NCBI GenBank assembly: GCA_008632985.1
Contig: QPGO01000062.1
Span: 62,001 to 126,000 of the forward strand
DNA length: 64,000 nucleotides
Origin: Psammoneis japonica
Lineage: Eukaryota
Reading direction: 5' to 3'
The position numbers and the translations under genes are program-made. The notes under the pieces were generated by a model that did not search any database, was not told the DNA's origin, and was given only the letters and a program-made list of their open reading frames with translations. Positions 9,630 through 64,000 of the stretch are shown here, piece by piece. The first letter of the stretch is position 1; each line of letters begins with the position of its first letter.

Positions 9630-9672
9630 CGCAGGCGAATCCTTGCTTCCCTTTGCTGCTGCCTTGTTTGCG

Positions 9673-12616: not shown

Positions 12617-12621
12617 CTAGA

Positions 12622-21001: not shown

Positions 21002-21044
21002 TGAAATCGAAATTTTTGGGGCGATGCCGATGACGGTTAAGGCG

Positions 21045-37092: not shown

Positions 37093-38328
37093 TCACATTT
37101 TCGCCGCGTCCTCAGCCTTCTTCGCATCACTCGCTGAGTTTAATTGCTTACTCCCAATTATATTTCGCAACTGCATTCGTTCTTGCCAGGCAGGATTTTT
37201 GTTCTTTGCAATTCCTGGTGCAATGGGTCGACGTCCTTGCAGATTCAGATTGCCGATTTCGTTTGCCGAATAATCGTCTCGTCGAATGGCCAAAATGTCG
37301 GTCCAGTAGCCCATTTGGTAGCCATGATTACGTCCTTCTTGACCAGCTTTGGCAAACCACTGACATTGCTCGTATGGATCAGTTGGTCGAAAAAAGTCCG
37401 ACACGTAAGCACGACTTGGTCCGCCTTCGTAATCCCCCTTTGGATGCGACTGAAAAGCCAAGTCAAACAAATCGAAGTTGGCCTTGTGCAAAACTTCCAA
37501 AATATCCTTGACAGAAGAACATGTACCCATTTCCACACCTTTTGCTTGATCCAAAGCATCCACCCAGTATTCCAATAGTACAAATCGTGCCTTTTGCAAA
37601 TGACGCGACAGTCCCTTCAGTACATTTGCTTCTTGGCCTTGGACGTCAATTTTGACAAGATATAGATTGGCATCTTTATTCTTGCCAAACACATCTGTAT
37701 CCAGCACATCATCCAACGCAATAGTCTCTACTTCGGTTGTATCAATATTGTTGTTCCTTCCGGCTTGTTCTCGTTCATCCAAATTAACTCCAACCACATG
37801 ATCACCCGTTCCGCCATTGGTTGAGAACAAAAGCTTGTCTCCAGAGACGTTCGATACGGCCTTGTTGTACAGCGTCATTCGTGCCTTCTGGACATCGGAC
37901 AAGTCTTGATATTGACGCTCCATGCGGTTAAAGTTTTTTGGTGAGGGATCAAAGGAGAGTGTGGAAAATCCCATGAGGCTGGAAAAGGACGATTGAGCCA
38001 ACGAGAAGCAACCAACCTCCAAGACGTAATCATTCTCGGTAGGATGCGGGTGGTTCATTAGAAGAGACTCGAACATGGTATCCGAATCAAGATGTAAATG
38101 ACGAAGAATGGGATGAATAACAAAGTTATCATCCTTTTTCTGTTGGGGAGAGCGCAAGAAGCTCGAAGTAGTTGAGAGCAATCCATCACTCTCCTTGGAT
38201 GATGAGAACATGTAAAACAATAGGCATTGCATCGAAATCACAATGTGAATAAACCCAATCAGCAAAAAGATGAGAAATCTATCTCGACGTGGTGGTGTCG
38301 GTGGCGGTACCCTGAGGAGGCGCACCAT
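37093..38328 (-). CDS. FkbM-family (Methyltransf_21) methyltransferase, type II membrane protein, copy 1
   Basis: N-terminal TM helix; VLEVGC...SFDPSPKN...NKAVS...TIALDD...LVKIDVQGQEANVLKG. Confidence 0.82.
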   Translation of the reverse strand: MVRLLRVPPPTPPRRDRFLIFLLIGFIHIVISMQCLLFYMFSSSKESDGLLSTTSSFLRSPQQKKDDNFVIHPILRHLHLDSDTMFESLLMNHPHPTENDYVLEVGCFSLAQSSFSSLMGFSTLSFDPSPKNFNRMERQYQDLSDVQKARMTLYNKAVSNVSGDKLLFSTNGGTGDHVVGVNLDEREQAGRNNNIDTTEVETIALDDVLDTDVFGKNKDANLYLVKIDVQGQEANVLKGLSRHLQKARFVLLEYWVDALDQAKGVEMGTCSSVKDILEVLHKANFDLFDLAFQSHPKGDYEGGPSRAYVSDFFRPTDPYEQCQWFAKAGQEGRNHGYQMGYWTDILAIRRDDYSANEIGNLNLQGRRPIAPGIAKNKNPAWQERMQLRNIIGSKQLNSASDAKKAEDAAKM

Positions 38329-38545
38329 GGTTGATGATTCAGTAGGTCACAGCCTGTTTTGAGTTGATGCCAGGTTTTTTGTTTGAAAAAATTGTGAGCG
38401 GCCGTTGAGAGTCCAATACGTTTATACAGTCATTTTATGTATCATATTTTTATTGACGTATTAGCTTCTTAAGGTTATTATATCATCGTCCGTTGAGGAC
38501 CAAATCCCTGTTGATCGGTCCTTCACTATTTCGCAACCCCGGGGT

Positions 38546-39715
38546 TCAATGTAATGGTGTGCTCCCGGCTGCATTTCGCAACTGCATTCGTTCTTGCCAT
38601 GCAGGATTTTTGTTCCTCGCAATTCCTGGTCCAACAGGCAAACGTCCTTGCAGATTCAGATTGCCGATTTCGTTTGCCGAATACTCGTCTAGTCGAATTG
38701 CCAAAATGTCGGTCCAATAGCCCATTTGGTACCCATGATTACGTCCTTCTTGACCAGCTTTGACAAACCACTGACAATGCTCGTACGGATCAGTTGGTCG
38801 AAAAAAATCCGACACGTAAGCACGACTTGGTCCGCCTTCGTAATCGCCCTTTGGATGCGACTGAAAAGTCAGGTCAAACAAATCGAAGTTTGCATTGTGC
38901 AAAACTTCCAATATATCCTTGACAGAAGAACATGTACCCATTTCTACACCTTTTGCTTGATCCAAAGCATCCACCCAATACTTTACCAGCACAAATCGTG
39001 CCTTTTGCAAATGACGCGATAGTCCCTTCAGTACATTTGCTTCGTAGCCTTGGACGTCGATTTTCACTAGAAACAGATTGGCGTCTTTGTTTTTTCCAAA
39101 CACATCTTTATCCAGTACATCATCCAACGCAACAGTCTCTACTTCGGTTGTATCGATTTTACTATTTCTGCCCGGTTGTTCTCGTTCATCCAAGTTTACT
39201 CCAACCACATGATCACCGGTTCCGCCATTGGTCGAGAACAAGAGCTTGTCTCCAGATTCATTCGATACAGCCTTGTTATATAGCGTCATTCGTTCCTTTT
39301 GGATATCGGACAGGCTTTGGTATTGACGTTCCATACGATGAAAGTTCTTTGGCGAGGGATCAAAGGAGAGTGTGGAAAATCCCATGAGACTCGATAGAGA
39401 CGATTGAGCCAAGGAGTAGCAACCAACCTCCAAAACATAATCATTCTTTGTAGGATGCGGGTGGTTCATAAGTAGAGTCTCGAACATGGTATCCGAATCA
39501 AGATGTAGGTGACGAAGAATGGGATGAATAACAAAGTTCTCATGTTCTGATTGTTGGTGAGTGCGCAAGATTCTCGACGTAGTCGAGAGCAATCGATCAC
39601 TCTCATTATTAGACGATAATATGATGTAGAAAAAAATACACTGGATCGAAATCACTATGGTAAATGCAATCAGCATAAAGACGAGATAACGATCTTTCCA
39701 GAGGAGGCGCACCAT
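38546..39715 (-). CDS. FkbM-family methyltransferase, tandem duplicate copy 2
   Basis: Highly similar to copy 1; the likely start MVRLLW at 39715 mirrors MVRLLR of copy 1. Confidence 0.82.
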   Translation of the reverse strand: MVRLLWKDRYLVFMLIAFTIVISIQCIFFYIILSSNNESDRLLSTTSRILRTHQQSEHENFVIHPILRHLHLDSDTMFETLLMNHPHPTKNDYVLEVGCYSLAQSSLSSLMGFSTLSFDPSPKNFHRMERQYQSLSDIQKERMTLYNKAVSNESGDKLLFSTNGGTGDHVVGVNLDEREQPGRNSKIDTTEVETVALDDVLDKDVFGKNKDANLFLVKIDVQGYEANVLKGLSRHLQKARFVLVKYWVDALDQAKGVEMGTCSSVKDILEVLHNANFDLFDLTFQSHPKGDYEGGPSRAYVSDFFRPTDPYEHCQWFVKAGQEGRNHGYQMGYWTDILAIRLDEYSANEIGNLNLQGRLPVGPGIARNKNPAWQERMQLRNAAGSTPLH

Positions 39716-40179
39716 GGTGGATACATCGCACTGCAAACTGAAAATTATATGTATACGTACATATTGCAAATGGTCACACGACATTGTCGTAACTGATAGG
39801 ATAACTGTTTTACTTCAAGGGGCTTAATGAAACAATGCTTTGATGACAATGACTCCCCATGTACCAAATACAAAAAGTGTCTCTTTGAGTCTCTGATGAA
39901 GTATTATATGCATGATGTCATCAATATGATAGTTGTGCACGAAAAAGACGAAAACAATCAAAACAAAGAGAAAAAAAGAAACTGTGACACCAAAAATACC
40001 TGGTATTGTAAATGACAAATGAGGAGAAAAACGAGAAACGGAGTCCGGTGAAAAGGCGAAAACGAGGAAACACACCGAACAACGCGAGGAGCGAGGAGCC
40101 GGGACGCTGGAACGAACCAACACGTTGATCGCGTTGTCGGTTGTTATTAGAAAACATTGACTGTTGCCATAGTAGCATT

Positions 40180-41964: not shown

Positions 41965-43136
41965 ATGTTTCTTGTTGTTGTAGCAGCACTAACAGTCCGC
42001 TCGCTAGGCCGTGCTCAGGAGTATGGAGTTGATGTACGTTTGATTATTCATTTTGTAATTGTCAAAAAACCCGGTCTGAGCTTTTGCGTTCGGTTGCCGT
42101 GTGAACAGAACTGATTGTCATGATCTATCGTCATTTCCTCCTCTTTAGGTATCTTTTCCTATGCAACACTTTGAAATCTCGAAAGACAATCAAGTACTTG
42201 GTCCCAACAAACAAGAGTTCTATGATTCGTTTCTTCAAGGTTGCCGCGACTACTTTGGCGAAGAGAGTGAAAGGTGTGATGAGTGTGAATCGGGGAGAAT
42301 CAAGTTGAACGCCGAGCAACCCGCTAGAATGAAGGTATGTTATTGTAACATACGCTTACCTCTTTTTCTTCTAGAGTGTCTGAATGTCCTTTTCCCCTGT
42401 CCTTCTTCTTAATAATCATCTGCTGCGCTTGCTTTTCTTAAAAGAATTTCACGAGCCTAGGATTTGCCAAACTTCGATTGCCAGAAAATAGCTTGAAACT
42501 CCTGACAAAATTTTGGGAAGCCAACAAGGACCGACTTGAAATGGAGGACTGGCCAGTAGGAAACACATTCACCAACCAATGGACAATTACGTCAAGTATG
42601 GCGTTCATTGACCTACCTGACTATGAGGGCGGTGGGCCGGACCTTGTGAACGCCATTGTGAATGACGTGAAACCAACATTGGAAGAGTGGACCAAGGTCC
42701 CGGATTTGGAACTATCCTCCATTTATGGGGTTCGATCCTACCCCACCGGCTCGGTTTTGGCCCCACACGTGGATCGGGGTGCGTTGATCTCGTCTGCCAT
42801 AATTAATGTAGCTCAAGATGTGGATGAGCCGTGGCCGTTGGAAGTTATTGCGCATGACGGACTTGCATACAATGTCTCCATGGATGTAGGTAAGTGGCCG
42901 CAACTGCATCGCTTTCGGACCGCATTGCAGATGGCCTAACTTCTCACCCTCCGTCTAAAAATTGTCAAAAAGGCGACCTTGTGTTGTATGAGAGCCACTC
43001 TGTGATTCATGGACGCCCGTTTCCCCTCAAGGGACGCTATTTTGCAAACGTTTTCGTGCATTTTACGCCACCTGGCTATGCGGAAGAGTATGGTCTGGTG
43101 GAAGAAGATGAGGAAGTGGAAACAGATGAGCTTTAA
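41965..43136 (+). CDS. Secreted/ER 2OG-Fe(II) oxygenase (prolyl-hydroxylase-like), four exons
   Basis: Signal peptide, EYGVD/VSFPM, SIYGVRSY...LAPHVDR...SAIINVAQD...GDLVLYESHSVIHGRPFPLKGRYFANVFVHF; C-terminal TDEL. Confidence 0.8.
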
Positions 43137-43509
43137 GCCCGCCTTCTGTAGTATTTGATTCCAAAATCTTCGAGTACACACGTGTACCTAGCCCTTGCCT
43201 ATTTATACCTTGAATAGGTTCTCTAGACTATGAGGTATGCGCCTTCTTATCTCAGCGATTAGCTAGTCTATGTGTCGTTCCCTGCTGAAGCCGAATGGAG
43301 GTTGTCGAGCATTGTCAATGAGTGGTGTTACCACCATTCCACTGGTGGGGATGTGCTTCCGATTGATTGCTACCTCCACGGTGAAGGACCGTGAGCTATA
43401 CTGTACGTAGCTCTAGACTTGCAAGCTCCCTCTCCGAAGGATAGATGAGCTACAAAGCTTGACAACTGCCAGCACATTAAACTAACACCGGCTCTGTAAA
43501 AAGTATGAC

Positions 43510-45270
43510 CTGTTGATCATGCCTGCTGCTCTTGCCGTTCAACGCACGCATGGCCTTTGCAAGACCACCCTCTGGAAAATCCTTTTGGTGAGATCTTTAA
43601 TCATTTGCAAGGTTCCTTCGTCAAGTGTAAAGGCCGGTTCATCACCCAGTGGTTTCTGAGCCTTGCTGTTGTCCATGATGTGCGTGACGGACACAAGTTC
43701 AAACGTGGTGCAGGAGAGCAGGCCAAGTTCTGTGGGAACAGAAAGACCAAGGCTTGCATGCTGAATTCCATCATGGACACCAACAAAAAGAGAAGGGTGG
43801 ACAACATTCTTTGATGGACAAGGGATGGCACAATGGCACGCACTTGCCAAAAGATGTCCACGGCCCTGACTGGATCCCTCCTGTTTGCAATGAGAAAAGT
43901 TTCTCCACTGCACTTGCCCAAATTTAGACGCCACCTCTTAGGCAGCAAATGCCCCAAGACTGCATTGTCATTGAACACCCAACCAATGACCAAACATTTG
44001 AAACCAATCACAGGAGCATGCATGTCTCAAAAGGTTGGGACAAAACTGAGTTGATCCAAATGATGAAAGATTCCACTGGCTGGTCAAATGACTTCAAAAG
44101 CTGGTGCATTGGAGTGAGCAGCACAGTGGGATGGAGCTTCTTCCTTCTCAGCCAGTGCCTTGGAACAAGGAGTGTGTGCCAAGATGTGGCACCTGATTTC
44201 TCTGTGATGGGCATGAACCGTGCTTCGTTGCCATGCACAGGCAACTCAGCCATGTGATGGCAAGTGGCTCCTGCCGTGGAACTGCTTGTCAGTGCAAAAG
44301 ACTCAACATGTGATTCATCAGATGCCGTTGACAAATTGAGCACACCCTCCACATTGACCTTGCAGCTGAGTGGCCACTGTGACTTTTTTCCAATGAGAAT
44401 GAGAAATGACGGCTGCTGCATTGAAAACAATGTGGTGCTCAATTGCAGATGTGGCATCTTGGAAAGACTCCACAGATTTGTTACATCACCTTTTGTGTGG
44501 TGACTCCAATCAAGTGCATTCCCTTCAGCATGCTCTTCACATCAAATCCACACATCTGTGTCTCCCCACGTTGCTGTGAAAGTTGTGTGAGTCCTCTCCC
44601 AATTCCACTGGCATGAGCCATGAGACAAACCTCTTTTGTGTCTTCTCGGCATCATTTGTTGCATTTGCTTTCAACAGTTGCTTGCATTTTGCACTCGGCT
44701 GCCATGACTTGAGACAAAGTTGTTTTGATTCCAACAAGTTGGCGACAGCGGAAATTGCCAGTGGCACCAGCAGTGATGCACGGGGCAAGGGCTGAAGAGA
44801 AACAATGTTTGCAGGTCAAAGCAATTGGGGGACTTGTGCTCAAGAGAAGCCCATGCATCATTGGAGATGACAAAGTCAAATGCTGCATTGAATGATTGCT
44901 CAAAGATCACTCTTTGACCTTTGACTTCGGCCCTGAAGTGCCGGCGAAAAATGTCTGGAGCTCTGGCGAAACTTCCACTGAAAGGAAATGGAAACAACAG
45001 CAGAAACACAGCCAGCAATTGAACAACTGCCGTTACACAAACCGGTGCGTCCGACAGCATTGCATCAACACGCCACAAACCTTGAGCACACATGCCGGTC
45101 CACGGCAAGGCAGGTGCCGGCAGGCGCCAACAAATCAATCAAATAAATAAAAAAGCGCGGGAATGTCGTGTGTCCGTCGAACGACCTGTCATTTGCCGCC
45201 CGGAATCGGGAAGGAAGATGAGACATTGTAACGGACAATGGTGACATTCTTGTGGGTCGCGTCACAGAAC
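43510..45270. mobile_element. Degenerate TpA-depleted transposon relic (possibly a Gypsy protease region)
   Basis: Abrupt loss of TA relative to both flanks; fragments such as LPKFRRH, DCIVIEHP and ITGACMSQKVG loosely recall diatom Gypsy retropepsin. Confidence 0.45.
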
Positions 45271-47211: not shown

Positions 47212-47787
47212 GCAACGCAAAGTCAGGGTTATTGTGTTGCTGCACCACCATTCGATTTAATAATGCCATTTGATGACGATTCTACCATTGGTGTTTTCGT
47301 TTCAAGCTGTTTTCCTGTTCTGCGTTACTAGAAATAAAAACAGAGGGATCATGTAGACTCCAACCATCAAAGATTTTGTCGTCTTGTTCTCAGAACTTTC
47401 ATCTCGAACAATATCAGTGACATAGCAGTCCTGGCGGGGGATCTTGTTCGCACCTATCCGAGCCTTGAGAGCAGGATCGAAGGCAGGAGGAAAAAATGAG
47501 GACGACCGTTGAGATTGTATGCTGTCTCACATTTACTAAGAAATATTATTCTAATATGACTATATGTTCTTTAATGTCAATTTCAATAGAAATAACTATA
47601 TTAATGCCTGAAGTTTTTAATTTAGAAGAATGTTGAAGTTGCGGAACCCGGTTGGAACACGCGTTTTGTTCGAGTTCACGCAAGCCGCGAGAGAACACAA
47701 TGACAGAGTGAACCTGTACTTCTGAGCATCAACATTCAACAGCCTTACGGTTCCACCTCGTCGAACTTGCTCTCCACTGTTGCCATC

Positions 47788-49902
47788 ATGTCCGCTCCGA
47801 CCGTAACTGAAATTGCAAATTACGGCGGAACGCTCGAGGTCGATGGGAGTCCGCAGCAGCAAGATCCTGATTTACCCAATGAGAATCATCCCAAGATTCA
47901 GCAGAGTCATCCCGGAGAACACCACGGCGATTTCGGGCAGGAGGCGGTTAAGATTACGCAAAAGTGTTATCTCTATGTCTTTTGTGCTGCGTTGAATTCC
48001 TGCAATTTGGGGTTTGATATCGGAGTCTTCACAGTAGCCGGTCCGTTGATTCAAGAAACGTATGATCTTAGCGATACCAAGCTTGAGGTACTCATTGGAA
48101 GTCTCAACTTTTGGGCCATGTTTGGAGCTCTCTTCTCTCATTATGCATCTGATAAGTACGGAAGACGGAGATCATTTTTGGTTAGTCTCTTTTTTTGAAA
48201 GTCTGTGAGATTCTTGGCTAAATTTCTGGATTTCCTTAACGGACCCGTGTCTCTGTTTACGCCTTTTTTATTTTTAGGTTGCTGCCATTGGATTCATCAT
48301 TGGTGTCATTATCACATGCACGGCGCAGGGATATGGTCTGCTCATGTTTGGCCGAGTGTTTATTGGGCTCGGAGTCGGTTTTGGGCTCGCGGTAAGTGCT
48401 CTGCTGTGAATGTCTGGTTGGTTGGGCAGGAAAAAGGCTCTATAACGCTAACGATTCAATGATATTACGCATTGACAGATTGATCCGATGTACATTTCCG
48501 AAATTTCACCCGCCAGTCACCGTGGTGAACTTGTCACGTGGTCCGAATATGCCATCAATGTCGGTACGTGATCTTATGCTGCATTTTTAGTGGCACTGCC
48601 TATTGCTTTGGTGTTCTAACTCACCTTTTGTTTTGTCTCTTAGGCATTTTGTTGGGATTCATCATGGGTTTGCTCTTTGATGCCGTGGAAGCGTCCCTTG
48701 CTTGGCGTTTAATGATTGCACTGGGTGCTGTCTTGCCCAGCATTATGATTTATCTTTCCTTGTTTGTCATGCCTGAATCACCGAGGTGGCTTATTGCGAA
48801 TCTGCGCAGCGATGAAGCGAGGACCATTTTGCAAGATGTTTATCCGAGTGGTACGCAAAAGAAGAATGATCTGTGTATCTTGTGTCCTCTAGCGGCTCTT
48901 CATATCTCATACCGGTATTTCTTACGCTGTTGTTCTATCCAGGTTTTGATGTCACTCCCATTCTGGCCGACATTCATGACTCGATTGACCGTGAACGGAT
49001 TGCCGAAAAGGCCGTTGGCTGGGACGAAATATTCCATCCGACACCTGCGTTCCAAAGAATGCTCATGGTTGGTGTAGGAACAGCCATTGCACAGCAGGCT
49101 GTTGGTATTGATGCGGTGCAGTACTTTTTGGTTCGAATTCTTGATGACTCAGGCATTGAGTCGCGGACAAATCAGTCTCTTGTGTTGATATTGCTCGGAG
49201 TCGTCAAGATGGCTTGTGTCATTGTTGCTGCCAAGCTCTTTGATAGACGCGGGCGAAAACCGCTGTTCTTTTTTTCTCTTGCAGGTGTGTGGATCTGGAT
49301 TATTGTTTATTCCAATCCCATTTCGTTCTCACAACTTACATTGGAAACTCTTCTCCCTACGATGCTCTGCCTTATATCCGATAAAAGGAATGTTCATTTC
49401 TCTAGTGATTCTGGCCATTAACTTTATCGGAGCTGATTACAATGAAGGGTTCTCCATCTTTGGTTTGTCTCTCTATCTGGCCTTCTTCAGTCTTGGTATG
49501 GGACCTGGTGCGTGGCTCATCCCCGCTGAGGTCTTTTCCACCTGCATCCGTGCCAAGGCCATGAGCATCGCGACCTTTATGAACCGTGCCACGGCTACTC
49601 TCATGTCGGCGACAGCTCTGAGTACTGCCAATGCCATGACGTGGGCCGGGTTTTTCTTCCTTTTGGCTGGTATTTGTGTGATTGTGGCGGCTTTCTTTTA
49701 CGTGTTTTTGCCTGAAACCAAAAATCGTTCTCTGGAAGACATGGCGGTGTATTTTGCCGAAATCACCAATGACACTTCCGTTTTGGAGGCGGAAGCAAGG
49801 ATCATGAAAGAGCGAGAGGAGAGAGGTGGAGCCTCCGAGTCGCAGCAGGCTCCGCCATCGTACACGTCACCAGAGGCCACAGCCGATGGTGAATTCACCT
49901 AG
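47788..49902 (+). CDS. MFS sugar-porter (polyol/monosaccharide transporter-like), multi-exon
   Basis: NSCNLGFDIG, SDKYGRRRS, PESPRWL, QQAVGIDAV, DRRGRKPL, GPGAWLIPAEVF, LPETKNRSLEDM. Confidence 0.92.
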
Positions 49903-50149
49903 TACTCGACCAACGCCTCATCTAGAGAGAACAAGCGCTTGGGTTTTTGTCAGGAATAAATTGCGTAGGTAGGCAGAGTGAAGACAGTGCGCGGCAGAAT
50001 TATATTTTACTTAGACATCGGAAGAAAGTGAGTTTTACAATAATCTCTCAATGGCTAAATTGCGTTGACAGAAACATGCAGGACGTTGCTCTCAATATAG
50101 TAAATCGCCGTCAACCAAAGTCTCAGAACCCAGGATTAGCCACTTGGCC

Positions 50150-50750
50150 GCGCGGAGGGGCTAGTCGACGGAACATTGCTGGGTGCCTAACTACTAGAGG
50201 ACAGCTGATGGGCTTGTTGAAGGCACCGCAGACGGTTGAAGAGAAGGCACATCACTTGGGTGAGCGGACGGACTCGTCGACGGGACATTACTGGGTGTCG
50301 AACTCTGGAGAGCTCATGGACTTTTAGAGGGCACCGTAGACGGTTGAAGAGAAGGCACATAACTTGGTTGAGCCTAAGGACTAGTCTACGGGTTATTACT
50401 GGGTGCCGAACTCGGGACAGCTGATGGGTTTTTTGAAGGCACCGTAGACGGTTGCAGAGAAGGCACATCGCTTGGCTTAGCGGAGGTGCTAGTCGAGGGG
50501 ACATTACTGGGTGCCGAACTCGGGACAGTCATTGGGTTTGTTGAAGGCACAATAGAGGGCTGAAGAGAAGGCGTATCACTTGGCTGAGCGGATGAACCAG
50601 TCAACGGGATGCTACTGGGTGCCGAACTCGGGACAGTGATGGGTTTGTTGATGGCAACGTAGACGGTTGAAGAGAAGGCACATCACTTGGTTGCGCGGAG
50701 GGGCCAGTCGACGGGACATTGCTGGGTGCCGAACTTGGGACAGCTGGTGG
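50150..50750 (-). pseudogene. Frameshifted fragment of a PSxxPS-repeat gene related to 56416-64000
   Basis: [27 protein letters not shown] units spread over several frames. Confidence 0.65.
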
Positions 50751-50999
50751 GCAGCGCTTCCTGGTAATTGTTAAAGGACTGCTTTCCTGAATCGGACTTC
50801 CAGTATCCAAGGTGATGTTGGCTTTGCTGGGTCTATGGAATTCCCAGGAATTTAATAATGATTCAGTGAAATCGGCATCGATTATGATGCTTTCTTCCAC
50901 TGACAGATCTATGTATCGCCCAAGGCCGTCTGTACATCAAGCAACCCATCGAAAGAACAACGTGCTTATGTTCGTAGTATCGTCGTGACTTCTTGGATC

Positions 51000-53900
51000 A
51001 TTCTCGTCATCTGTGAGCACACAAAGAACAGTCATTGAATTGGTTGTTCCATCCATGCATGAGGATTGGGCAGACTGAGTTCAATGCAAAGCAGGAGCAG
51101 CATGTGAGGAACCATCACAACAGTGTCAAGAGTCGTGAGTGCCATGATTCACATTAACATTGCATTGTTGCCAATGTGGCCAGAGTGTGATTGCATCCTT
51201 CGGTCATTTGGTCAGTGTGCCAAACATCCCCATAGCACAAAAATGATCAAGTTGGGTGAACTCACTGTGGTTGCAAGCCAAGCTGTTTTGAGAGCCTGCT
51301 GCTCTTCTGGGGTGACAGCAGCATGAGATGAGATCATGAAGACATTGAAAGTGCCCTGTTCATGATTGATCATCGGTGGTGGTGAGTCAGGTTCCAGGTC
51401 ATCCAAAGCTGAGCAATCAACACCAGGGAACCACAAAGCTGCAACAGCACATGCACTGGCTGTTGGGAGTTCAGGGACATGTTCCTCTTTGTCTGGAGGA
51501 GGAGGGGGGAGAAGACATCATGTTCCATCAGGGCACATTAAAGCTGACAGGAGTTGAGGCATCATCCCGGCATGAAAATGATTTGAAACAAAGGGGCATC
51601 TGCATCTCAAAGGTGTTGGAGCCAGCTTCAACTTGCTGCTGCATGAAAACATCTGTGCCACCAATCAAAGCAATGCGCCCGCCCCTGATCTCACTCTGAG
51701 CTGCTTTGAGAGAGGAGCAGAGGCAAGCCACAGGACTGCCATGCTTGGTGTTGGAGATGAGATCATGCATGATTGAATGGCTCATCAGTCTTGAAAGCAA
51801 TGTCACACTTTTGGGTCCAATGTGGGCCACCACATCTTGCACTTGAGGGTCTTGATGAAACTTCTTGATGTGGGTTTCTTGTCATTCCTCAGCTGGAGCA
51901 GGTTTGCCACTCTGCACTCGCTGAAGACAAATGACATTTGGTCACATTTGGTCATGGGGGAGATTGTCCACGCACTCATCAAAACAGAAATGTGCACCTG
52001 TCTTGACAAGGCCAGATGCCAGATCACACCACATGATGATGTTCTTGGCAGCATCCGGCATGTGCCCTGAGATTTTACCTTGTCACGAAACTTTGTCAGG
52101 CACTTGATGTTCTTGCAAACCCAGACATGGCATCTGAACATGCAGAAACCAGCAAAATCCTTAACCTTTCTTGTGGCAAGAGCAACAGGCAACAGGAGAG
52201 ACATCTTCTTGATCTTTTGAAGGAATTGCATTCTTGATGTGGGTGCAACAATGGAAAGCACAAGGCCAAAACTTGATTGGCAAACCAGCTCCAATGAGCA
52301 TTGCTCAAACAGCGTTCTGCACTGCCAAGTGGCTGTGTTTGACAGGGCCATTCTGATTGGAGGCATCTGCTCCAGAAGGGCATGTGGTGCACCAAAGGTT
52401 GTGCTCAAAAAAGTCTTTGCACTGCTGAACTTCTGCACAACTCACCACCTTGATCCATGAGCACATGTGCATCTTGACAAGTGGAACCACAGAAACAATG
52501 AGTGCAGTGGTCATGGACAAGAGTCCAACAAGTCCTGCCATTGATGTCAACACAATCCACAACATGTTCTTCCTTCTTCAACTTGAGGACACTGGAGAAT
52601 GCAAAATCTGCCATGAGACCTTGGTGGGGTTGAGTTGCAATGCACATGGAGAATTGGGACCAGCAGGGCTCTTTTTCTGTTTTGCTTGGATGCAAGTGGG
52701 ACAAGCATTCAAGGGGAACTGCCGCAAGCACACGCAGGAACACCCTTGGTGCACTTGTGAGCATTGCACAAGTGGTGATTGCTGGGATGGCCAAGACGTT
52801 GATGTCAAAGCAAGTGTTCCGCATCAGCCTTGAGGGATTTGCTTGATCTCAGAGGCAGGTCTCAAAGCAAACATCTTGATGCACTTGGGGAACAAGCTTT
52901 TGTTGTTCCTTCAGAGTGTTTGCTTGATTCTCCTTGTGAATGTTGACAACACATGCCACCACCATGGTGTCAAATTCCTTGGCAAACTTGAGGTCTGCAA
53001 TCTTGAGATCCAATGTTGCTGCTTCAAGCAGCTTGTCCAACTCCAGTGGGATCAAGGGGTGGGCAAACCACTTGCTGTTGATGAGCTGGCCATGGACAAC
53101 AATGTCTTGAGCAGCACAGAGTTGATGTTTTGCAACACAATGGCGTGCACCTTTATCATGAAATTTCGCTGAACAACCCACCATGAAATCTTGCTTGCAT
53201 CCACTGTTGACCGCATGAAAAGTGCGTTCATCCACCAGAGTTGACTGGAGCTTGGGATGGCAGCATGCACAGAATGCATCATGCACTGCCAAGTGCCAGA
53301 TTGACCTTTTGGGGGGGACACGGGTTGTCAGGTGAAGAAGCCTGGCAGTGGTGGAGGTGTTGGCCACAGCAAAAGGAGACATGCTGGCACCAGCATCAAA
53401 CTGTGCACAACATTTGTTGGACAAAAAATTGACAGCATTGGCTTCAAAAATCTCACACTCAGCATCAAATGTGATGTTGTTGGGAGACATCCATTGTGGC
53501 ATGGATGGAGAGATGCAGATGGAGTTGAGCATGGCAAATCATGATTCCTCAGGACATTCAAAAAACTCCAACCCAAAAGGTTCAATGGGTTCTGTTTCAA
53601 TGCATTGCAGCCATTGCCACAGCATGAGGTCACAATGCAAGAATGAAGGTGACTGTTCTTGGGGAGCACAGCTGGGCATGGCAGGAGCTTGTGGATTGCA
53701 CGCAACACTGCAAGGCAATGAACATGCATGCGCTGTCAGAGATCATCAGAGCCAGTCTTTCCAACACTGAAGCCCAATTCACCACCACAGTTTTGCAGGA
53801 AATGGCACCACAAGGGGTGCACACAGCAGCCAGTCAGCCACATGCCTCTGAAAATTCAGGTGCCATTGGCACATGCCATGCGGCAAGTCGTCATGGCATG

Positions 53901-56085
53901 CACATGGCTCATGAAGGAGTGCCTTGTGATTTGGTGTTGGAACAAGCACAAAGAGTGATCCACCAGCCAATGTGAGGCATTCTGCACCATCCAAGTGGCA
54001 CAAACAGCTGCCATCACAAGGTGCAAGTGACTTCCAGAGGATCACTTTCTTGCAAATCTTGTGGTCAAAGCAATGACGGATGCCACATTTTGGTTGCACA
54101 TCTGCGCTGAACATGAAATTGGATTGTGTGGTTGCAGCAGAAGGTGCGGCACTCCCACTCCCACCTGACAGAGATCCTTTTGCAGCACAGCCATTGTCCA
54201 GTGTTCAGCGTCAATCAAATCAGAGATGTCAGCCAGCCCCAATCCCACCGCATGCGTGGACAATGCCAGTGAGGTTTTTGGCATGTGCTGGGGGGGGGGA
54301 TTGCAGACGTGTTCCAGTCCCAGGTGACGGACACAAAAAACGACAATCGATTTTGAACATAAATTGTGCATCCTGAGTGCACGCATTTTCATGCAAAACA
54401 CTTGAGCGGATTGGCTTTTACAGGCATGCAGTGCATGTAAATTTCAACAATTTTTAAGGGGGCACCAAAGTCCTCATGGGGCACGCATCACAAACTTCCT
54501 CAGTGGACTCAATGCTGATTGTAAGTCACCACATTTTATGCTGAGATTTGTTGGCAGGTAGAAAACCTGCCAAGCAGCATTGCAGAAAGATGTGTTTGGG
54601 TGACATCCAAATGACGGCAACAATTTTGCCGAAAGATCATCCGTTGTGTTACAATTCGCTCATCGCAATGAAAAACATAGACAGCACAATGACAATGACA
54701 TTGCAACACTCACACGAGTCAGTCTTGTGAGTGGAATTTGAACAAATCGACACTTTTGGTGGTGAAAAACCATTCGCACAAGTCAGAGACCGCGCAAAAA
54801 TCGCGCAAATGTCGTTTTTGTAATTGGCACGATTTGGGTCACGTGCGGCTGGAACACGTCTGCAGCAGAAAACTTGTTCCAGTCCTTGTGTGTGTGTTGC
54901 ATGTCCGGATCAAAGTGGAACGCCCAATGCCAACTTGGACAATCACCTTCAGGATGCAGGCCTTGAGAGCAGCTCCAATCTTTTGTGACCCACCATCTGT
55001 CTGGAGTGACAGGATGGAGCATCATTGCCAGCTGGAGACATGATCTGAGTGGGCAACTCATTGATGAGGGTTGCAGCCAGCAGTTTGTCTTTGGGGTCGC
55101 TGAGTTCCAGGAGAATCATGGCACATGCAAGAGGCCAACAACACCATCTTTTGACTCTGCATGACTGTCATCATAAAAAAACTCACCAAGCTCAACGATG
55201 AACTCAGGTGCTCAGCAGTGTTGCTGTGATGAGGGTGTGATTGGAGTGTTGTGGTGATCTCGGCAAGGGTGTCAACGATGGCATTTCTGGGAGCAAGGTT
55301 TGCCATGGTGAGATCTGTGCAACCATTTTGATCAAAAATCATGCAGAGTTGAGCACTGTCCTGTGGCCCAAAAATCTTCTTTGGTGCCATGAAATCCATT
55401 CCAGGATCAAAAATGGCGGCAAGCTCACCCAGCTTGCAAGCCAAACAAATTACAGTTGGATTTGCAGTGCAGTGGAATGATGGCCTGATGAGGCCACAGC
55501 CCAGCAGAAGAGGAACAGCTGAGAGCAACAGGCACAAGGGTCCTCCCCACAAAACTGGCAACAGTGACAACATGTGCACCAGTGAGAAAGAGTGACAGAG
55601 AAGCAGATCTCTCAGAAGATCTGCTCATGCATCTGAAGTGTCTGGCCATCATCCACACACAGTCTGACCGCACACAGCAGTCGGCCTGCTGACAGTGGAC
55701 AATGAATCAAGTGCTGCTTCATTTGCAACAAATGACGTGGTTTGCCATTTGTGTTGCATTGAGAATGCCAGATCAAGAAAATGTGATGCATGAAATTCAA
55801 AAATGTGTCTCTCAGACACAACAGCTCTGCTTCACATGAGAGATGCATTTTTCACAAAAACACATGCACTTCTGTGTGTCAATTCACACTCGACATTGTG
55901 CAATGGCATGTTTGCAAGTGGTTGCATGAACATTTGAGTGAAATCATCAATCGTGTTTGAAAAGTGCAATTCATCTAAACGCTCTTGCCATGCTGCTTGC
56001 AGCACTTCGTCTCCACGTGACACCACTTGCTCTGACAAGCGAATAAATCCCACCGGTTCCACAATGTTCTGGACAAATGATGGCT
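51000..56085 (-). mobile_element. Old retroelement relic, probably non-LTR (LINE-like); depleted of both TpA and CpG
   Basis: Composition shift with sharp edges. Minus-strand fragments KFRDKVK and HIGPKS...HDLI...SSLKAAQSEI resemble the region C-terminal to RT in diatom non-LTR elements. No intact RT motif seen. Confidence 0.45.
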
Positions 56086-56415: not shown

Positions 56416-59400
56416 TCAATTTTGTGGAGGACAATCTGCACTGGTGCAAGATCCCTGTCCCGAACATTGTGGTGCAGCACCACCACTGTCACCACAGCAA
56501 ACCTGACCAGTGGAAGAACAACCAGCACCATTTTCGCAACATTCATCTGGGTACTCTCCATTTGCGGAATTGCATGCAGATGGATCACAATTCACAGCAG
56601 GAGTTTGGCTCGGTGTCGTGGAGGGAGCCAAGGATGGCGAATTGGTGGGCTCTGCAGATGGCATTGTCGAAGGTACGTCACTAGGAGCAGCACTCGGGAC
56701 TGCAGATGGAGCAGTGGATGGCACCGTCGAAGGGGTGAGAGACGGGACATCACTTGGCTCGGCTGATGGTGTTCTTGAGGGAACGTCACTGGGAGCCGCA
56801 CTGGGGACTGTAGATGGAGCACCAGAGGGCACCGTCGAAGGGGTGAGAGACGGGACATCACTTGGCTCTGCTGATGGTCTTGTTGAGGGAACGTCGCTGG
56901 GAGCCGAGCTCGGGACTGTAGATGGCGCAGTAGAGGGCACCGTCGAAGGGGTGAGAGACGGAACATCACTTGGCCCTGCTGATGGTGCTGTTGTTGGAAC
57001 GTCACTGGGAGCCGCACTCGGCACTGTAGATGGAGCAGCAGAGGGCCCTGCCGAAGGGGTGAGAGACGGGACATCACTAGGCTCTGCTGATGGTGTGGCG
57101 GAAGGAACGTCACTGGGAGCGTAACTCGGGGTTGTAGATGGAGTAGTAGAGGGAACCGTCGAGGGGGTGAGTGACGGGAAATCACTTGGCTCTGCTGATG
57201 GCATTGTTGAAGGCTCGTCACTGGGAGCCGCACTTGGTAATACAGAGGGAGTAGCAGAAGGAACCGTCGAAGGGGTGAAGGACGGGACATCACTTGGGTC
57301 TGTAGATGGCATTGTTGAAGGCACGTCACTAGGAGCCACACTCGGGACTGTAGACGGAGTACTAGAGGGCATCGTCGAAGGGGTGGCAGACGGGATATCA
57401 CTTGGCTCTGCTGATGGTGTTGTTGAGGGAACGTCACTAGGAGCCGCACTCGGGACTGTAGATGGAGTAGTAGAGGGCACTGTCGAAGGGGTGAGAGACG
57501 GGACGTCACTTGGCTGTGTGGATGGCATTGTTGAAGGCACGTCACTAGGAGCCACACTCGGGACTGTAGACGGAGCAGCAGAGGGCACCGTCGAAGGGGT
57601 GAGAGACGGAACATCACTTGGTTCTGTAGATGGCATTGTTGATGGAACGTCACTGGGCGCCGCACTCGGGACTGTAGACGGAGCAGCAGAGGGCACCGTC
57701 GAAGGGGTGGTAGACGGAGCAGCAGAGGGCACCGTCGAAGGGGTGAGAGACGGGACATCGCTTGGCTCTGTAGATGGCATTGTTGAAGGCGCATCACTGG
57801 GATCCGAACTCGGGACTGCAGACGGAGTAGTAGAGGGAACCGTCGAAGGTGCGAGAGACGGGACATCGCTTGGCTCTGTCGATGGCATTGTTGACGGCAC
57901 GTCACTAGGAGCCGCACTCGGGACTGTAGACGGAGTAGCAGAGGGAACCGTCGAAGGGACGAGAGATGGAACATCGCTTGGCTCTGTAGATGGCATTGTT
58001 GAAGGCGCGTCACTGGGAGCCGCACTGGGGACTGTGGATGGAGCAGTAGAGGGCACCGTCGAAGGGGTGAGAGACGGGATATCACTTGGCACTGTTGATG
58101 GTGTTGCTGAAGGAATGTCGCTGGGAGCGGAACTCGGGATTGTAGATGGAGCAGTAGAGGGAACCGTCGAAGGAGCAGCACTCGGGACTGCAGATGGAGC
58201 AGTGGATGGCACCGTCGAAGGGGTGAGAGACGGGACATCACTTGGCTCGGCTGATGGTGTTCTTGAGGGAACGTCACTGGGAGCCGCACTGGGGACTGTA
58301 GATGGAGCACCAGAGGGCACCGTCGAAGGGGTGAAAGACGGGACATCACTTGGCTCTGCTGATGGTTTTGTTGAGGGAACGTCGCTGGGAGCCGAGCTCG
58401 GGACTGTAGATGGCGCAGTAGAGGGCACCGTCGAAGGGGTGAGAGACGGAACATCACTTGGCCCTGCTGATGGTGCTGTTGATGGAACGTCACTGGGAGC
58501 CGCACTCGGCACTGTAGATGGAGCAGCAGAGGGCCCTGCCGAAGGGGTGAAAGACGGGACATCACTTGGCTCTGCTGATGGTGTTGCGGAAGGCACGTAA
58601 CTAGGAGCCGCACTAGGGACTGTAGACGGAGCAGCAGAGGGAACCGTGGAAGGGGCGAGAGACGGGACATCGCTTGGCTCTGCTGATGGCATTGTTGATG
58701 GAACGTCACTGGGAGCCGCACTCGGCACTGTAGATGGAGCAGCAGAGGGCCCTGCCGAAGGGGTGAGAGACGGGACATTACTTGGCTCTGCTGATGGTGC
58801 TGTTGATGGAACGTCACTGGGAGCCGCACTCGGCACTGTAGATGGAGCAGCAGAGGGCCCTGCCGAAGGGGTGAGAGACGGGACATCACTTGGCTCTGCT
58901 GATGGTGTTGCTGAAGGAACGTCACTGGGAGCGAAACTCGGGACTGTAGATGGAGCAGCAGAGGGAACCGTCGAAGGGGTGAGAGACGGGACATTACTTG
59001 GCTCTGCTGATGGCAGTGTTGATGGAACGTCACTCGGAGCCGCACTCGGGACTGAAGACGGAGCAGCAGAGGGCACCGTCGAAGGGGTGAGAGACGGAAC
59101 ATCACTTGGTTCTGAAGATGGCAAGGTTGACGGAACGTCACTGGGCGCCGCACTCGGGACTGTAGACGGAGCAGCAGAGGGCACCGTCGAAGGGGTGAGA
59201 GACGGGACATCGCTTGGCTCTGTAGATGGCATTGTTGAAGGCGCGTCACTGGGATCCGAACTCGGGAGTGTAGAGGGAGTAGCAGAGGGCACCTTCGAAG
59301 GGGCGAGAGACGGGACTTCGCTTGGCTCTGTCGATGGCATCGTTGAAGGCACGTCACTAGGAGCCGCACTCGGGACTGTAGACGGAGCAGCAGAGGGAAC

Positions 59401-62400
59401 CGTCGAAGGGAAGAGAGATGGGACATCGCTTGGCTCTGTAGATGGCATTGTTGAAGGCGCGTCACTGGGAGCCGCACTGGGGACTGTGGATGGAGCAGTA
59501 GAGGGCACCGTCGAAGGGGTGAGAGACGGGATATCACTTGGCTCTGCTGATGGTGTTGCTGAAGGAATGTCGCTGGGAGCGGAACTCGGGATTGTAGATG
59601 GAGCAGTAGAGGGAACCGTCGAAGGAGCAGCACTCGGGACTGCAGATGGAGCAGTGGATGGCACCGTCGAAGGGGTGAGAGACGGGACATCACTTGGCTC
59701 GGCTGATGGTGTTCTTGAGGGAACGTCACTGGGAGCCGCACTGGGGACTGTAGATGGAGCACGAGAGGGCACCGTCGAAGGGGTGAAAGACGGGACATCA
59801 CTTGGCTCTGCTGATGGTTTTGTTGAGGGAACGTCGCTGGGAGCCGAGCTCGGGACTGTAGATGGCGCAGTAGAGGGCACCGTCGAAGGGGTGAGAGACG
59901 GAACATCACTTGGCCCTGCTGATGGTGCTGTTGATGGAACGTCACTGGGAGCCGCACTCGGCACTGTAGATGGAGCAGCAGAGGGCCCTGCCGAAGGGGT
60001 GAGAGACGGGACATCACTTGGCTCTGCCGATGGTGTTGCGGAAGGAACATCACTGGGAGCGTAACTCGGGGTTGTAGATGGAGTAGTAGAGGGAACCGTC
60101 GAGGGGGTGAGAGACGGGAAATCACTTGGCTCTGCTGATGGCATTGTTGAAGGCTCGTCACTGGGAGCCACACTTGGTAATACAGAGGGAGTAGCAGAGG
60201 GAACCGTCGAAGGGGTGAGGGACGGGACATCACTTGGGTCTGTAGATGGCATTGTTGAAGGCACGTCACTAGGAGCCACACTCGGGACTGTAGACGGAGT
60301 ACTAGAGGGCATCGTCGAAGGGGTGACAGACGGGATATCACTTGGCTCTGCTGATGGTGTTGCTGAGGGAACGTCACTAGGAGCCGCACTCGGGACTGTA
60401 GATGGAGTAGTAGAGGGCACTGTCGAAGGGGTGAGAGACGGGACGTCACTTGGCTCTGTGGATGGCATTGTTGAAGGCACGTCACTAGGAGCCACACTCG
60501 GGACTGTAGAGGGAGCAGTAGAGGGCATTGTCGAAGGGATGAGAGACGGGACGTCACTTGGCTCTGCTGATGGCATTGTTGAAGGCGCGTCACTAGGAGC
60601 CGCACTCGGTAATGAAGAGGGAGTTGCAGAAGGAACAGTCGAAGGGGAGAGAGACGGGAAATCACTTGGCTCTGTAGATGGCATTGTTGAAGGCACGTAA
60701 CTAGGAGCCGCACTAGGGACTGTAGACGGAGCAGTAGAGGGAACCGTCGAAGGGGCGAGAGACGGGACATCGCTTGGCTCTGCTGATGGTGCTGTTGATG
60801 GAACGTCAGTGGGAGCCGCACTCGGCACTGTAGATGGAGCAGCAGAGGGCCCTGCCGAAGGGGTGAGAGACGGGACATCACTTGGCTCTGCTGATGGTGT
60901 TGCTGAAGGAACGTCACTGGGAGCGAAACTCGGGACTGTAGATGGAGCAGTAGAGGGAACCGTCGAAGGGGTGAGAGACGGGACATTACTTGGCTCTGCT
61001 GATGGCAGTGTTGATGGAACGTCACTCGGAGCCGCACTGGGGACTGTAGACGGAGCAGCAGAGGGGACCGTCGAAGGGGTGAGAGACGGAACATCACTTG
61101 GTTCTGTAGATGGCATTGTTGATGGAACGTCACTGGGCGCCGCACTCGGGACTGTAGACGGAGCAGCAGAGGGCACCGTCGAAGGGGTGAGAGACGGGAC
61201 ATCGCTAGGCTCTGTAGATGGCATTGTTGAAGGCGCGTCACTGGGATCCGAACTCGGGAGTGTAGATGGAGTAGCAGAGGGCACCGTCGAAGGGGAGAGA
61301 GACGGGAAATCACTTGGCTCTGTAGATGGCATTGTTGACGGCACGTCACTAGGAGCCGCACTCGGGACTGTAGACGGAGCAGTAGAGGGAACCGTCGAAG
61401 GGGCGAGAGACGGGACATCGCTTGGTTCTGTCGAAGGCATTGTCGAAGGCACGTCACTAGGAGCCACACTCGGGACTGTAGATGGAGCAGTAGAGGGCAC
61501 CGTCGAAGGGGTGAGAGACGGGACATCACTTGGCTCTGCTGATGGTGTTGCTGAAGGAATGTCGCTGGGAGCGGAACTCGGGGTTGTAGATGGAGCAGTA
61601 GAGGGAACCGTCGAAGGAGCAGCACTCGGGACTGCAGATGGAGCAGTGGATGGCACCGTCGAAGGGGTGAGAGACGGGACATCACTTGGCTCGGCTGATG
61701 GTGTTCTCGAGGGAACGTCACTGGGAGCCGCACTGGGGACTGTGGATGGAGCAGTAGAGGGCAACGTCGAAGGGGTGAAAGACGGGACATCACTTGGCTC
61801 TGCTGATGGTCCTGTTGAAGGAATGTCGCTGGGAGCGGAACTCGGGATTGTAGATGGAGCAGTAGAGGGAACCGTCGAAGGGGTGACAGACGGGACATCA
61901 CTTGGCTCTGCCGATGGCATTGTTGAAGGCGCGTCACTGGGATCCGAACTCGGGAGTGTAGAGGGAGTAGCAGAGGGCACCTTCGAAGGGGCGAGAGACG
62001 GGACATCGCTTGGAGCTGTCGATGGCATCGTTGAAGGCGAGTCACTGGGAACCGCACTCGGAACTGCAGACGGAATAGCAGAGGGAACCGTCGAAGGTGT
62101 AAAAGACGGGACATCACTTGGCTCTGTAGATGGTATTGTTGAAGGCGCGTCACTGGGAGCCGTACTCGGCATTACAGAGGGAGTAGCAGAAGGAACCGTC
62201 GAAGGGGTGAGAGACGGGACATCACTTGGTTCTGTAGATGGCATTGTTGAGGGAACGTTGCTGGGAGCCACACTCGGGACTGTAGACGGAGCAGCAGAGG
62301 GCACCGACGAAGGGGAGAGAGACGGTACATCACTTGGCTCTGTAGATGGCATTGTTGAGGGAACGTTGCTGGGAGCCACACTCGGGACTGTAGACGGAGC

Positions 62401-64000
62401 AGCAGAGGGCACCGACGAAGGGGCGAGAGACGGGACATCACTTGGCTCGGCTGATGGTGTTGTTGAGGGAACGTTGCTGGGAGCCACACTCGGGACTGTA
62501 GACGGAGCAGCAGAGGGCACCGACGAAGGGGTGAGAGACGGGACGTTACTTGGCTCTGCTGATGGCATTGTTGAAGGCGCGTCACTGGGACCCGCACTCG
62601 GTGTTACACTTGGCTCTGCTGATGGTGTTGCTGAAGGAATGTCGCTGGGAGCGGAACTCGGGATTGTAGATGGAGCAGTAGAGGGAACCGTCGAAGGAGC
62701 AGCACTCGGGACTGCAGATGGAGCAGTGGATGGCACCGTCGAAGGGGTGAGAGACGGGACATCACTTGGTTCGGAAGATGGCATTGTTGATGGAACGTCA
62801 CTGGGAGCCGAACTCGGGAGTGTAGATGGAGTAGCAGAGGGCACCGTCGAAGGGGCGAGAGACGGGACATCACTTGGCTCTGCTGATGGTCTTGTTGACG
62901 GCACGTCACTAGGAGCCGCACTCGGGACTGTAGACGGAGTAGTGGAGGGAACCGTCGAAGGGGCGTGAGACGGGACATCACTTGGCTCTGTCGATGGCAT
63001 CGTTGAAGGCACGTCACTAGGAGCCGCACTCGGGACTGTAGACGGAGTAGCAGAGGGAACCGTCGAAGGGACGAGAGATGGGACATCGCTTGGCTCTGTA
63101 GATGGCATTGTTGAAGGCGCGTCACTGGGAGCCGCACTGGGGACTGTGGATGGAGCAGCAGAGGGCACCGCCGAAGGGGTGAGAGACGGGACGTTACTTG
63201 GCTCTGCTGATGGCATTGTTGAAGGCGCGTCACTGGGACCCGCACTCGGTGTTACAGAGGGAGTAGCAGAAGGAACCGTCGAAGGGGTGAGAGACGGGAC
63301 ATCACTTGGTTCTGTAGATGGAACTGTTGATGGAACATCACTGGGAGCCGCACTGGGGATTGTGGATGGAGCAGCAGAGGGCACCGTCGAAGGGGTGAGA
63401 GACGGGGCATCACTTGGCTCTGCCGATGGCAGTGTTGATGGAACGTCACTGGGAGCCGCACTCGGGACTGTAGACGGAGTAGCAGAGGGCACCGTCGAAG
63501 GGGTGAGAGACGGAACATCACTTGGTTCGGAAGATGGCATTGTTGATGGAACGTCACTGGGAGCCGCACTCGGGACTGTAGACGGAGTAGCAGAGGGCAC
63601 CGTCGAAGGGGTGAGAGATGGGACATCGCTTGGCTCTGTAGATGGCATTGTTGAAGGCGCGTCACTGGGATCCGAACTCGGGAGTGTAGATGGAGTAGCA
63701 GAGGGCACCGTCGAAGGGGAAAGAGACGGGAAATCACTTGGCTCTGTAGATGGCATTGTTGAAGGCACGTCACTAGGAGCCGCACTCGGGACTGTTGACG
63801 GAGCAGTGGAGGGAACCGTCGAAGGGGCGTGAGACGGGACATCACTTGGCTCTGTCGATGGCATCGTTGAAGGCACGTCACTAGGAGCCGCACTCGGGAC
63901 TGTAGACGGAGCAGTAGAGGGAACCGTCGAAGGGACGAGAGATGGGACATCGCTTGGCTCTGTAGATGGCATCGTTGAAGGCGCGTCACTGGGAGCCGCA
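56416..64000 (-). CDS. Giant Pro/Ser/Thr-rich (PSxx)n mucin-like protein with a Cys-rich C-terminal domain; 5' end outside the window
   Basis: More than 2500 codons open; 36-aa (108-bp) unit of nine PSxx tetrapeptides; ends CDPSAC...[10 protein letters not shown]...VCC...QC...SCTSADC. Confidence 0.9.

Follow-up and report, generated by a model that had tools for sequence, protein, structure and literature searches.

A tract of DNA that has lost nearly all of its TA dinucleotides to TG and CA raises the question of how the responsible mutator finds its targets. We address it in a 64,000-nucleotide stretch of the diatom Psammoneis japonica (contig QPGO01000062.1, positions 62,001 to 126,000 of the forward strand; the whole stretch is called the window below), where TA-erased tracts lie beside two duplicated host loci, a tandem pair of FkbM-family methyltransferase genes and a long repeat-containing gene rich in proline and serine (the PS gene). 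The first-pass annotation of this DNA had inferred that targeting follows the identity of transposable elements, or silent chromatin, and is not triggered by homology between copies. Our observations support the view that plain duplication does not draw the TA-erasing mutator, and we lean, at slightly better than even confidence, towards a TA-to-TG/CA hypermutation that acts on chromosomal domains rather than on sequence homology.

Two kinds of DNA make up the window. In 1-kb intervals, the observed/expected ratio (o/e) of TA is 0.01-0.2 across 1-29 kb, 44-45 kb and 51-56 kb and 0.4-0.75 elsewhere, and the o/e of TG and CA rises to 1.4-2.1 in the TA-poor intervals. A two-state hidden Markov model (HMM) on the choice of TA versus TG/CA divided the sequence into mutated (H) segments and the rest (N, or gene space), with six H tracts of 0.9-12 kb each (3-12217, 12640-19551, 19875-20809, 21132-29112, 43506-45141 and 50986-56037). 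TA o/e is 0.06-0.20 in these tracts versus 0.54-0.73 in the rest of the window, TA accounts for 1.6-6.0% of TA+TG+CA sites in H versus 14-28% in N, and the o/e of TG and CA is 1.3-2.0 in the H tracts. The counts of TG and CA are about equal in all of them, indicating that both strands were hit. Changes at TpA that give TpG or CpA on either strand, clustered in local regions (here the six tracts, whose edges are sharp to about 100 bp) in otherwise normal sequence, are features that this DNA shares with the hypermutation described from Bigelowiella natans.

The FkbM genes, both intact (Table 1), are 87.655% identical over 1126 bp (37162-38284 versus 38573-39695, at an offset of 1411 bp), in agreement with the similarity over more than 1 kb that had been claimed for them; the start of copy B that is homologous to that of copy A is at 39715. 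An ungapped core of 1050 columns contains 37 TA in copy A and 42 in copy B, 23 of which are shared, with TA o/e of 0.47 and 0.53 and CG o/e of 0.92 and 1.07, respectively. TA o/e is 0.56 over the locus and 0.82 in the non-coding spacer between the genes. The copies differ by 70 transitions and 50 transversions, 77 of these 120 at third codon positions, and the pair has a synonymous divergence (dS) of 0.405 and a nonsynonymous divergence (dN) of 0.058 (dN/dS 0.14). The pattern resembles ordinary divergence between long-separated copies that are held by purifying selection.

The PS gene is repetitive at two scales. Tandem Repeats Finder (TRF) resolves it into 68.4 copies of a 108-bp period with 78% matches, so that the dozens of units described in the first-pass annotation are present but their near-identity was overstated. 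Longer internal duplicates span 1035 bp at 95.9% identity, 1916-1917 bp at 90.3% and 3446-3450 bp at 87.5%. The gene contains 165 TA (TA o/e 0.51, CG o/e 0.82), including those in the motifs quoted earlier as evidence of retention, TGTAGATGG (46 occurrences), CACTAGGAG (16) and GAGTAGCAG (13). The claim that TA is kept in the FkbM pair and the PS gene (o/e 0.47-0.56) was correct. The companion claim that Tyr codons are kept is true of the FkbM genes, with 12 in copy A and 15 in copy B, and says little about the PS gene, which has 5 Tyr in about 2528 codons. A frameshifted PS-repeat relic, 63-70% identical to the PS gene and with its frame in at least three pieces, also retains TA, as had been noted (TA o/e 0.71, CG o/e 0.85).

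The two copies of the 1035-bp duplicate hold 27 and 26 TA, and their 42 differences comprise 2 of TA type, 5 of CpG type and 35 others. Given these figures, we rejected as a composition artefact and false positive a seventh H segment called by the HMM in the 3' end of the PS gene (56417-57026), which overlaps one of the two copies.

A change from NNT to NNC is silent in every codon family, so a T ahead of a codon that starts with A can be erased at no cost to the protein. We therefore scored how often NNY|A sites carry T (the NNT|A test). T is kept at 19 of 48 such sites in FkbM copy A and 22 of 46 in copy B (0.40 and 0.48), and at 149 of 284 in the PS gene (0.52). Four sets of single-copy genes keep it at 27/86, 54/162, 8/33 and 25/75 sites (0.24-0.33), the last being the sugar transporter, and four open reading frames (ORFs) of the H tracts at 16/170 (Copia tract), 11/144, 3/78 and 5/81 (0.04-0.09). 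Before bases other than A, the share of T is 0.47-0.71 in every set. The synonymous TA content of the duplicates equals or exceeds that of single-copy genes. An excess of TA-to-TG/CA change at the synonymous sites of host duplicates, which the first-pass annotation had named as the pattern that would contradict it, is not seen (T kept at 0.40-0.52). Selection at the codon level cannot explain the sparing, since TA is also kept in non-ORF DNA of the gene space (7881 bp pooled; TA o/e 0.64, CG o/e 1.05) and in the FkbM spacer.

Within the single-copy genes (29588-49902), T before an A-starting codon is avoided 2- to 5-fold (odds ratios 0.18-0.36). The cause may be either the TA deficit that genomes commonly show or a weak trace left by the mutator across the whole genome.

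These results bear on a homology-triggered mutator resembling repeat-induced point mutation (RIP) of fungi, under which the host duplicates of today would be escaped alleles and hit copies of needed genes would have been purged. Purifying selection on the FkbM genes and a PS gene that stays open over about 2527 codons would suit such a history, as would the finding that, in two of three host pairs, no dinucleotide is less conserved than TA. However, the synonymous NNT|A sites of the duplicates are not depleted relative to single-copy genes, TA is retained in the non-coding FkbM spacer and in the PS relic, on which selection at the protein level is unlikely, and most H DNA has no second copy within the window, where its sole repeats are the long terminal repeat (LTR) pair of a Copia-type element and two tandem arrays. 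In addition, the rate reported for Bigelowiella natans, about 6e-7 per site per generation (10.64898/2026.01.13.699255), is gradual and not that of one burst, so silent hits should accumulate. We regard this survivorship account as quite unlikely.

The spectrum of differences between copies separates host duplicates from repeats in H DNA. We counted difference events, treating a column pair of TG versus CA as one event (a doublet), the trace of a single TA that was hit on one strand in one copy and on the other strand in its partner. TA-type events make up 19 of 132 in the FkbM pair (1 doublet), 2 of 42 in the 1035-bp PS pair and 33 of 182 in the 1916-1917-bp PS pair; those of the 3446-3450-bp pair were not used, its mafft alignment having 864 gap columns. 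In H DNA, they make up 6 of 8 in the Copia LTRs, 24 of 49 in the tandem array at 9667-10904 (20 doublets) and 17 of 67 in the tandem pair at 21 kb. Specifically, the eight LTR events are four TA-type singles, two TG/CA doublets, one CpG-type event and one other. The LTR pair differs from the 1035-bp PS pair (Fisher test, p = 4.6e-5) and from the FkbM pair (p = 9e-4, calculated with FkbM counts of 20 and 99 that predate the final 19 of 132). Once TA-type and CpG-type differences are set aside, the PS pair has 35 others in 1035 bp and the LTR pair 1 in 292 bp, which indicates that the PS duplicate was already present while the LTRs, about 30 kb away, were being hit.

Contigs from two sequencing runs were also compared with the window, X1 being a DNA run, maybe from the same sample, and X2 a run labelled 'DNA?'. 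In or at the edge of H tracts, X1 contigs differ from the window by six events, namely one CA/TA single, two TG/CA doublets and three of CpG type. The run-versus-window variants at 43473-45031, which begin 33 bp to the left of the HMM edge, are one TA/CA single, two TG/CA doublets and two of CpG type. Gene space yielded three events, two from X1 and one from X2, none of them TA-type or CpG-type. Judged by these variants, the TA-erasing process looks recent or still running.

Seven joints with GT..AG borders, each skipping 80-115 bases, occur in X2 and not in X1; two are at 42033-42149 and 42331-42442, and the other five lie in 48179-49386. X2 thus behaves as complementary DNA or a transcriptome, and the joints back introns in the sugar transporter and in a gene at about 42-43 kb. 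There are no X2 contigs over the bins 43804-45131 and 51108-55755, and X2 depth over the FkbM genes is 0 at 37164-38491 and 39156-39819, with one bin at 1.9; missing cover says nothing about silence and was used neither way. The PS relic lies inside a spliced, RNA-like X2 contig that covers 49386-50676. Contigs of both X1 and X2 bridge parts of the relic (for example, 50192 to 50638), so that its number of units, and perhaps its frameshifts, may depend on the assembly.

A homology or copy-number trigger could also act above a threshold that the host duplicates fail to reach, such as a need for many dispersed copies, for small RNAs made from high-copy families only, or for recognition when an element integrates. 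The recognisable targets are of this kind, being the Copia element and an ORF from a family with clusters of up to 204 members, and part of the 51-56 kb tract has a contig depth 15- to 100-fold that of its surroundings. The FkbM genes are just two copies at 88% identity, with a contig depth of 60-75 versus about 57 elsewhere. On the other side, the PS gene is untouched despite its dozens of units and its duplicates of 1-3.4 kb at 88-96%, and the depth of the 43.5-45.1 kb tract, at a likeness of at least 90%, is 57-62 versus about 57, which we take as a weak hint. Moreover, H status extends 375 bp past the Copia LTR up to a sharp edge, and the differences between the LTRs postdate the insertion. 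On balance, we find a threshold of this sort unlikely.

The edges of the H tracts would fit domains. Counts of TA and CG in 100-bp bins switch together, within about 100 bp, at all five edges examined (29.1, 43.5, 45.1, 51.0 and 56.0 kb), which lie 235-475 bp from the ends of ORFs, and the six H tracts fall in nearly the same order by TA o/e as by CG o/e (rho 0.97). CpG decay is the usual trace of long-term 5-methylcytosine (5mC). Read in this way, the joint edges fit a silent, methylated domain. Hypermethylated repeat regions of up to 30 kb are described as alternating with unmethylated gene-rich ones in Cyclotella cryptica (PMC5124317), and transposable elements of Phaeodactylum tricornutum as carrying the histone marks H3K9me2/3 and H3K27me3 (PMC4504042).

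The data show changes from TA to TG/CA at single sites of both strands within blocks that have sharp limits; duplicates outside these blocks are spared, synonymous and non-coding sites included, and the copies of repeats within them are mutated one by one. We propose that the mutator works on silent, repeat-rich and probably CpG-methylated blocks, and that mutation halts within about 100 bp of the gene-space edge. Duplicates in gene space (the FkbM pair, the kilobase internal duplicates of the PS gene and the frameshifted PS relic) would then be non-substrates, unlike tandem repeats and LTRs in silent blocks. For the chemistry, the proposal of Mettrop et al. for Bigelowiella natans may apply, with adenine deaminated, or A changed to G in an equivalent way, at 5'-TA-3'. 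The licence for it may be a chromatin or 5mC state, acting through recruitment of the mutator or through failure to repair its lesions there.

Alternatively, A-to-G lesions might arise untargeted at TA everywhere, to be repaired in open, transcribed chromatin and left in compact, silent chromatin. Gene space is itself deficient in TA (o/e 0.54-0.64), with NNT|A down 2- to 5-fold in single-copy genes, the host duplicates show a weak TA effect, and the spliced X2 contigs indicate transcription of the gene space beside the H tracts, all of which would be expected if repair made the difference. Many genomes show a moderate TA deficit, however, and that of the gene space need not stem from this process. 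As regards duplicates, differential repair makes the same prediction as the domain explanation, and it is indistinguishable here from recruitment. We hold untargeted lesions to be improbable.

Several observations weigh against a mutator confined to domains. Of all dinucleotides, TA is conserved least between the FkbM copies (23 of 56 shared) and within the 1916-1917-bp PS pair (22 of 62 shared), which hints at a weak TA effect in gene space. In the 3446-3450-bp PS pair, synonymous T/C differences are more frequent before A than elsewhere (18/83 versus 29/361, p = 0.001, for sites that are not independent); the corresponding comparison in the FkbM pair (5/27 versus 14/112) is not significant. 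A weak leak of the TA effect into gene space is therefore possible. Three unmutated islands lie inside H DNA, which means that location in a mutated block is insufficient, unless the islands are recent insertions. One of them is a 391-bp element with terminal inverted repeats that coincides with the HMM N segment 12225-12637 (TA o/e 0.73) and that may have inserted recently or be protected; the other two, at 19557-19868 and 20815-21131, showed no clear terminal repeats. CpG depletion is, in addition, a mere proxy for long-term 5mC, and the Copia tract, with TA o/e at 0.20 and CG o/e at 0.91, fits a faster TA clock or, equally, independence from 5mC. Finally, only survivors are visible, so that hits in bursts followed by purging of the hit alleles could remove synonymous changes too, and the sample consists of two gene families in one window.

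The content of the H DNA speaks to the role of element identity. The Copia tract, our positive control within the window, is the least decayed of the tracts, and the 51-56 kb tract the most (TA o/e 0.06, CG o/e 0.24). The ORF at 17617-19290 has 41 homologues at 37-67% identity, without a Pfam family, some of which belong to 90%-identity clusters of up to 204 members. Tyr makes up 0.4% of its residues and 1.6-5.8% of those of the homologues; at the 11 columns where Tyr is conserved, it has Tyr once, His four times and Cys once. The ORF belongs to an unannotated multi-copy family and has itself lost Tyr. Outside the Copia element, none of the 97 H-tract ORFs of at least 100 amino acids reaches the Pfam cut-off. 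A match to Aminotran_3 in the ORF at 4847-6169, considered as a sign of a mutated host gene, was rejected as spurious, scoring 17.6 bits versus a cut-off of 30.5 and finding no support among PDB sequences. Element identity can thus be demonstrated for part of the H DNA only. Of the earlier inference on targeting, the dismissal of homology and duplication stands, silent chromatin or 5mC is indicated by the CpG proxy only, and element identity is supported for that part of the H DNA only.

The ORF at 6237-9722, on the reverse strand, is an uninterrupted frame of 1162 codons in a TA-erased tract. Its product belongs to no Pfam family and has neither a close homologue nor an atlas match; 21 distant matches, the best with an E-value of 6.7e-22, cover its last 300 or so residues, and none of the 9 scanned of these 21 has a Pfam family at the cut-off. 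In H DNA, where TAA and TAG have been erased, TGA is the one stop codon left. The length nonetheless suggests a real, perhaps recently dead, coding sequence.

At 53764-55091, X1 contigs sum to a depth of 839-6564, compared with about 57 close by, and show numerous loose ends and small indels. The 51-56 kb tract thus contains a high-copy repeat family. The ends of this tract and of the 43.5-45.1 kb tract were examined for terminal inverted repeats or LTRs, and none were found. A scan of the whole window for transfer RNAs and Rfam families gave no match.

Table 1. Features of the window, with duplicated host loci first, then TA-erased DNA, unmutated islands and other genes (MFS, major facilitator superfamily)
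Feature	Position	Strand	Details
FkbM-family methyltransferase gene, copy A	37093..38328	-	intact ORF, 411 aa; PF05050, E 4.4e-11
FkbM-family methyltransferase gene, copy B	38546..39784	-	intact ORF, 412 aa; PF05050, E 3e-11
PS gene: Pro/Ser-rich (xxPS)n repeats, Cys-rich C-terminal tail	56416..64000	-	open frame of about 2527-2528 codons; 5' end beyond the window
Youngest long internal duplicate of the PS gene	56683..57717	-	partner 59623-60657; 1035 bp, 95.9%, gapless
Frameshifted PS-repeat relic, unmutated	50141..50751	-	TRF 5.6 units, 80% matches; 235 bp from H-tract edge
Older TA-erased DNA	3..20809		TA o/e 0.11-0.14, CG o/e 0.64-0.74; interrupted by three short unmutated islands
TA-erased tract with Copia-type retrotransposon	21132..29112	-	RVT_2, E 3.6e-32; gag_pre-integrase match
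Copia LTR	22051..22342		partner 28446-28737; 96.6% identity over 292 bp
Small TA-erased tract within gene space	43506..45141		TA at 6/366 TA+TG+CA sites; TA o/e 0.06, CG o/e 0.36
TA-erased, CpG-depleted tract between PS relic and PS gene	50986..56037		TA at 19/1212 sites; TA o/e 0.06, CG o/e 0.24
391-bp element with 26-nt terminal inverted repeats	12226..12616		arms 12226-12251 and 12591-12616, 88% complementary
Unmutated island	19557..19868		312 bp; TA o/e 0.69
Unmutated island	20815..21131		317 bp; TA o/e 0.58, CG o/e 1.79
Sugar/MFS transporter gene with introns, single-copy comparator	47706..49902	+	Sugar_tr matches on three ORF pieces; five GT..AG joints (X2)
EF-G/EF-2-like gene, CRM1/exportin-1, FkbM pair, HA-domain ORF, sugar transporter, PS gene	N part		ordinary genes (Pfam)

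The signature matches that reported by Mettrop et al. (bioRxiv 10.64898/2026.01.13.699255), who describe hypermutation confined to TpA in giant-virus and virophage DNA that is integrated in the genome of Bigelowiella natans, with a mutation rate measured as about 1000-fold raised in some mutation-accumulation lines, and who suggest that an adenosine deaminase is at work and that RNA or epigenetic marks guide it. In both systems, T/A-to-C/G changes occur at TpA only and host genes are largely spared. Theirs concerns viral inserts in a chlorarachniophyte, with rates from mutation-accumulation lines, whereas ours concerns a retrotransposon and unclassified repeat-rich DNA in a diatom, and the depletion is deeper here (TA o/e of 0.06-0.20 versus a Rho of 0.45 in the Bigelowiella virus region). 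New here are the occurrence in a diatom, the coupling with loss of CpG and a test aimed expressly at duplicates; the part of their report on which we draw contains no test of duplicated host genes. A limited literature search on diatom transposable elements and TpA depletion found no report of TpA loss in diatom repeats.

RIP operates before meiosis, in the sexual phase, above thresholds of about 400 bp and 80% identity, and depends on RID and/or DIM-2. The process described here differs from it in direction, as RIP changes C to T at CpA and so creates TpA, whereas TpA is destroyed here: C:G-to-T:A change with raised TpA is not what we find, TA o/e being 0.06-0.20 and the LTRs differing by TA versus TG/CA. 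It also differs in its trigger: duplicates of enough length and identity, linked or not, set off RIP, whereas the FkbM pair (1126 bp, 87.7%) and the PS duplicates are unmutated, synonymous sites included. The contrast with RIP drawn in the first-pass annotation holds, in that linked kilobase duplicates survive here. The likeness lies in dense transitions restricted to repeat-rich DNA, in one dinucleotide context, with dead transposons as the outcome, as seen in Neurospora crassa and other Pezizomycotina (PMC12543289). According to the same source, a second, heterochromatin-dependent RIP pathway, with Dim2 and the H3K9 methyltransferase Dim5, mutates single-copy DNA flanked by repeats. There, chromatin state and not the repeat itself directs mutation, which makes this pathway the nearest analogue in logic to the domain pattern seen here, although it is cytosine-based, repeat-nucleated and fungal. 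The decay of CpG that deamination of 5mC causes in methylated transposons resembles our case in the loss of CG to TG/CA in the same tracts and at the same edges, but cannot explain the faster loss of TA (Copia tract, TA 0.20 and CG 0.91).

How targets are found is the central issue about the mutator, and Mettrop et al., the one paper found on this signature, suggest RNA guides or epigenetic marks. Duplicates spared in gene space beside repeats and LTRs that were hit remove the simplest RIP-like model, and direct experiments to chromatin state, methylation and repair. Tentatively, and at less than even confidence, we suggest that diatoms may carry an editor that turns A into G in DNA at 5'-TA-3' and takes its licence from silent chromatin (5mC, H3K9me or H3K27me domains), not from the recognition of repeats. 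Such a genome defence would read epigenetic marks and make silencing irreversible through the loss of TA-containing codons and signals and, unlike RIP, would leave gene duplication free. RIP is described as hindering evolution by gene duplication (2025 paper, PMC12543289), and a defence of this kind would avoid that cost.

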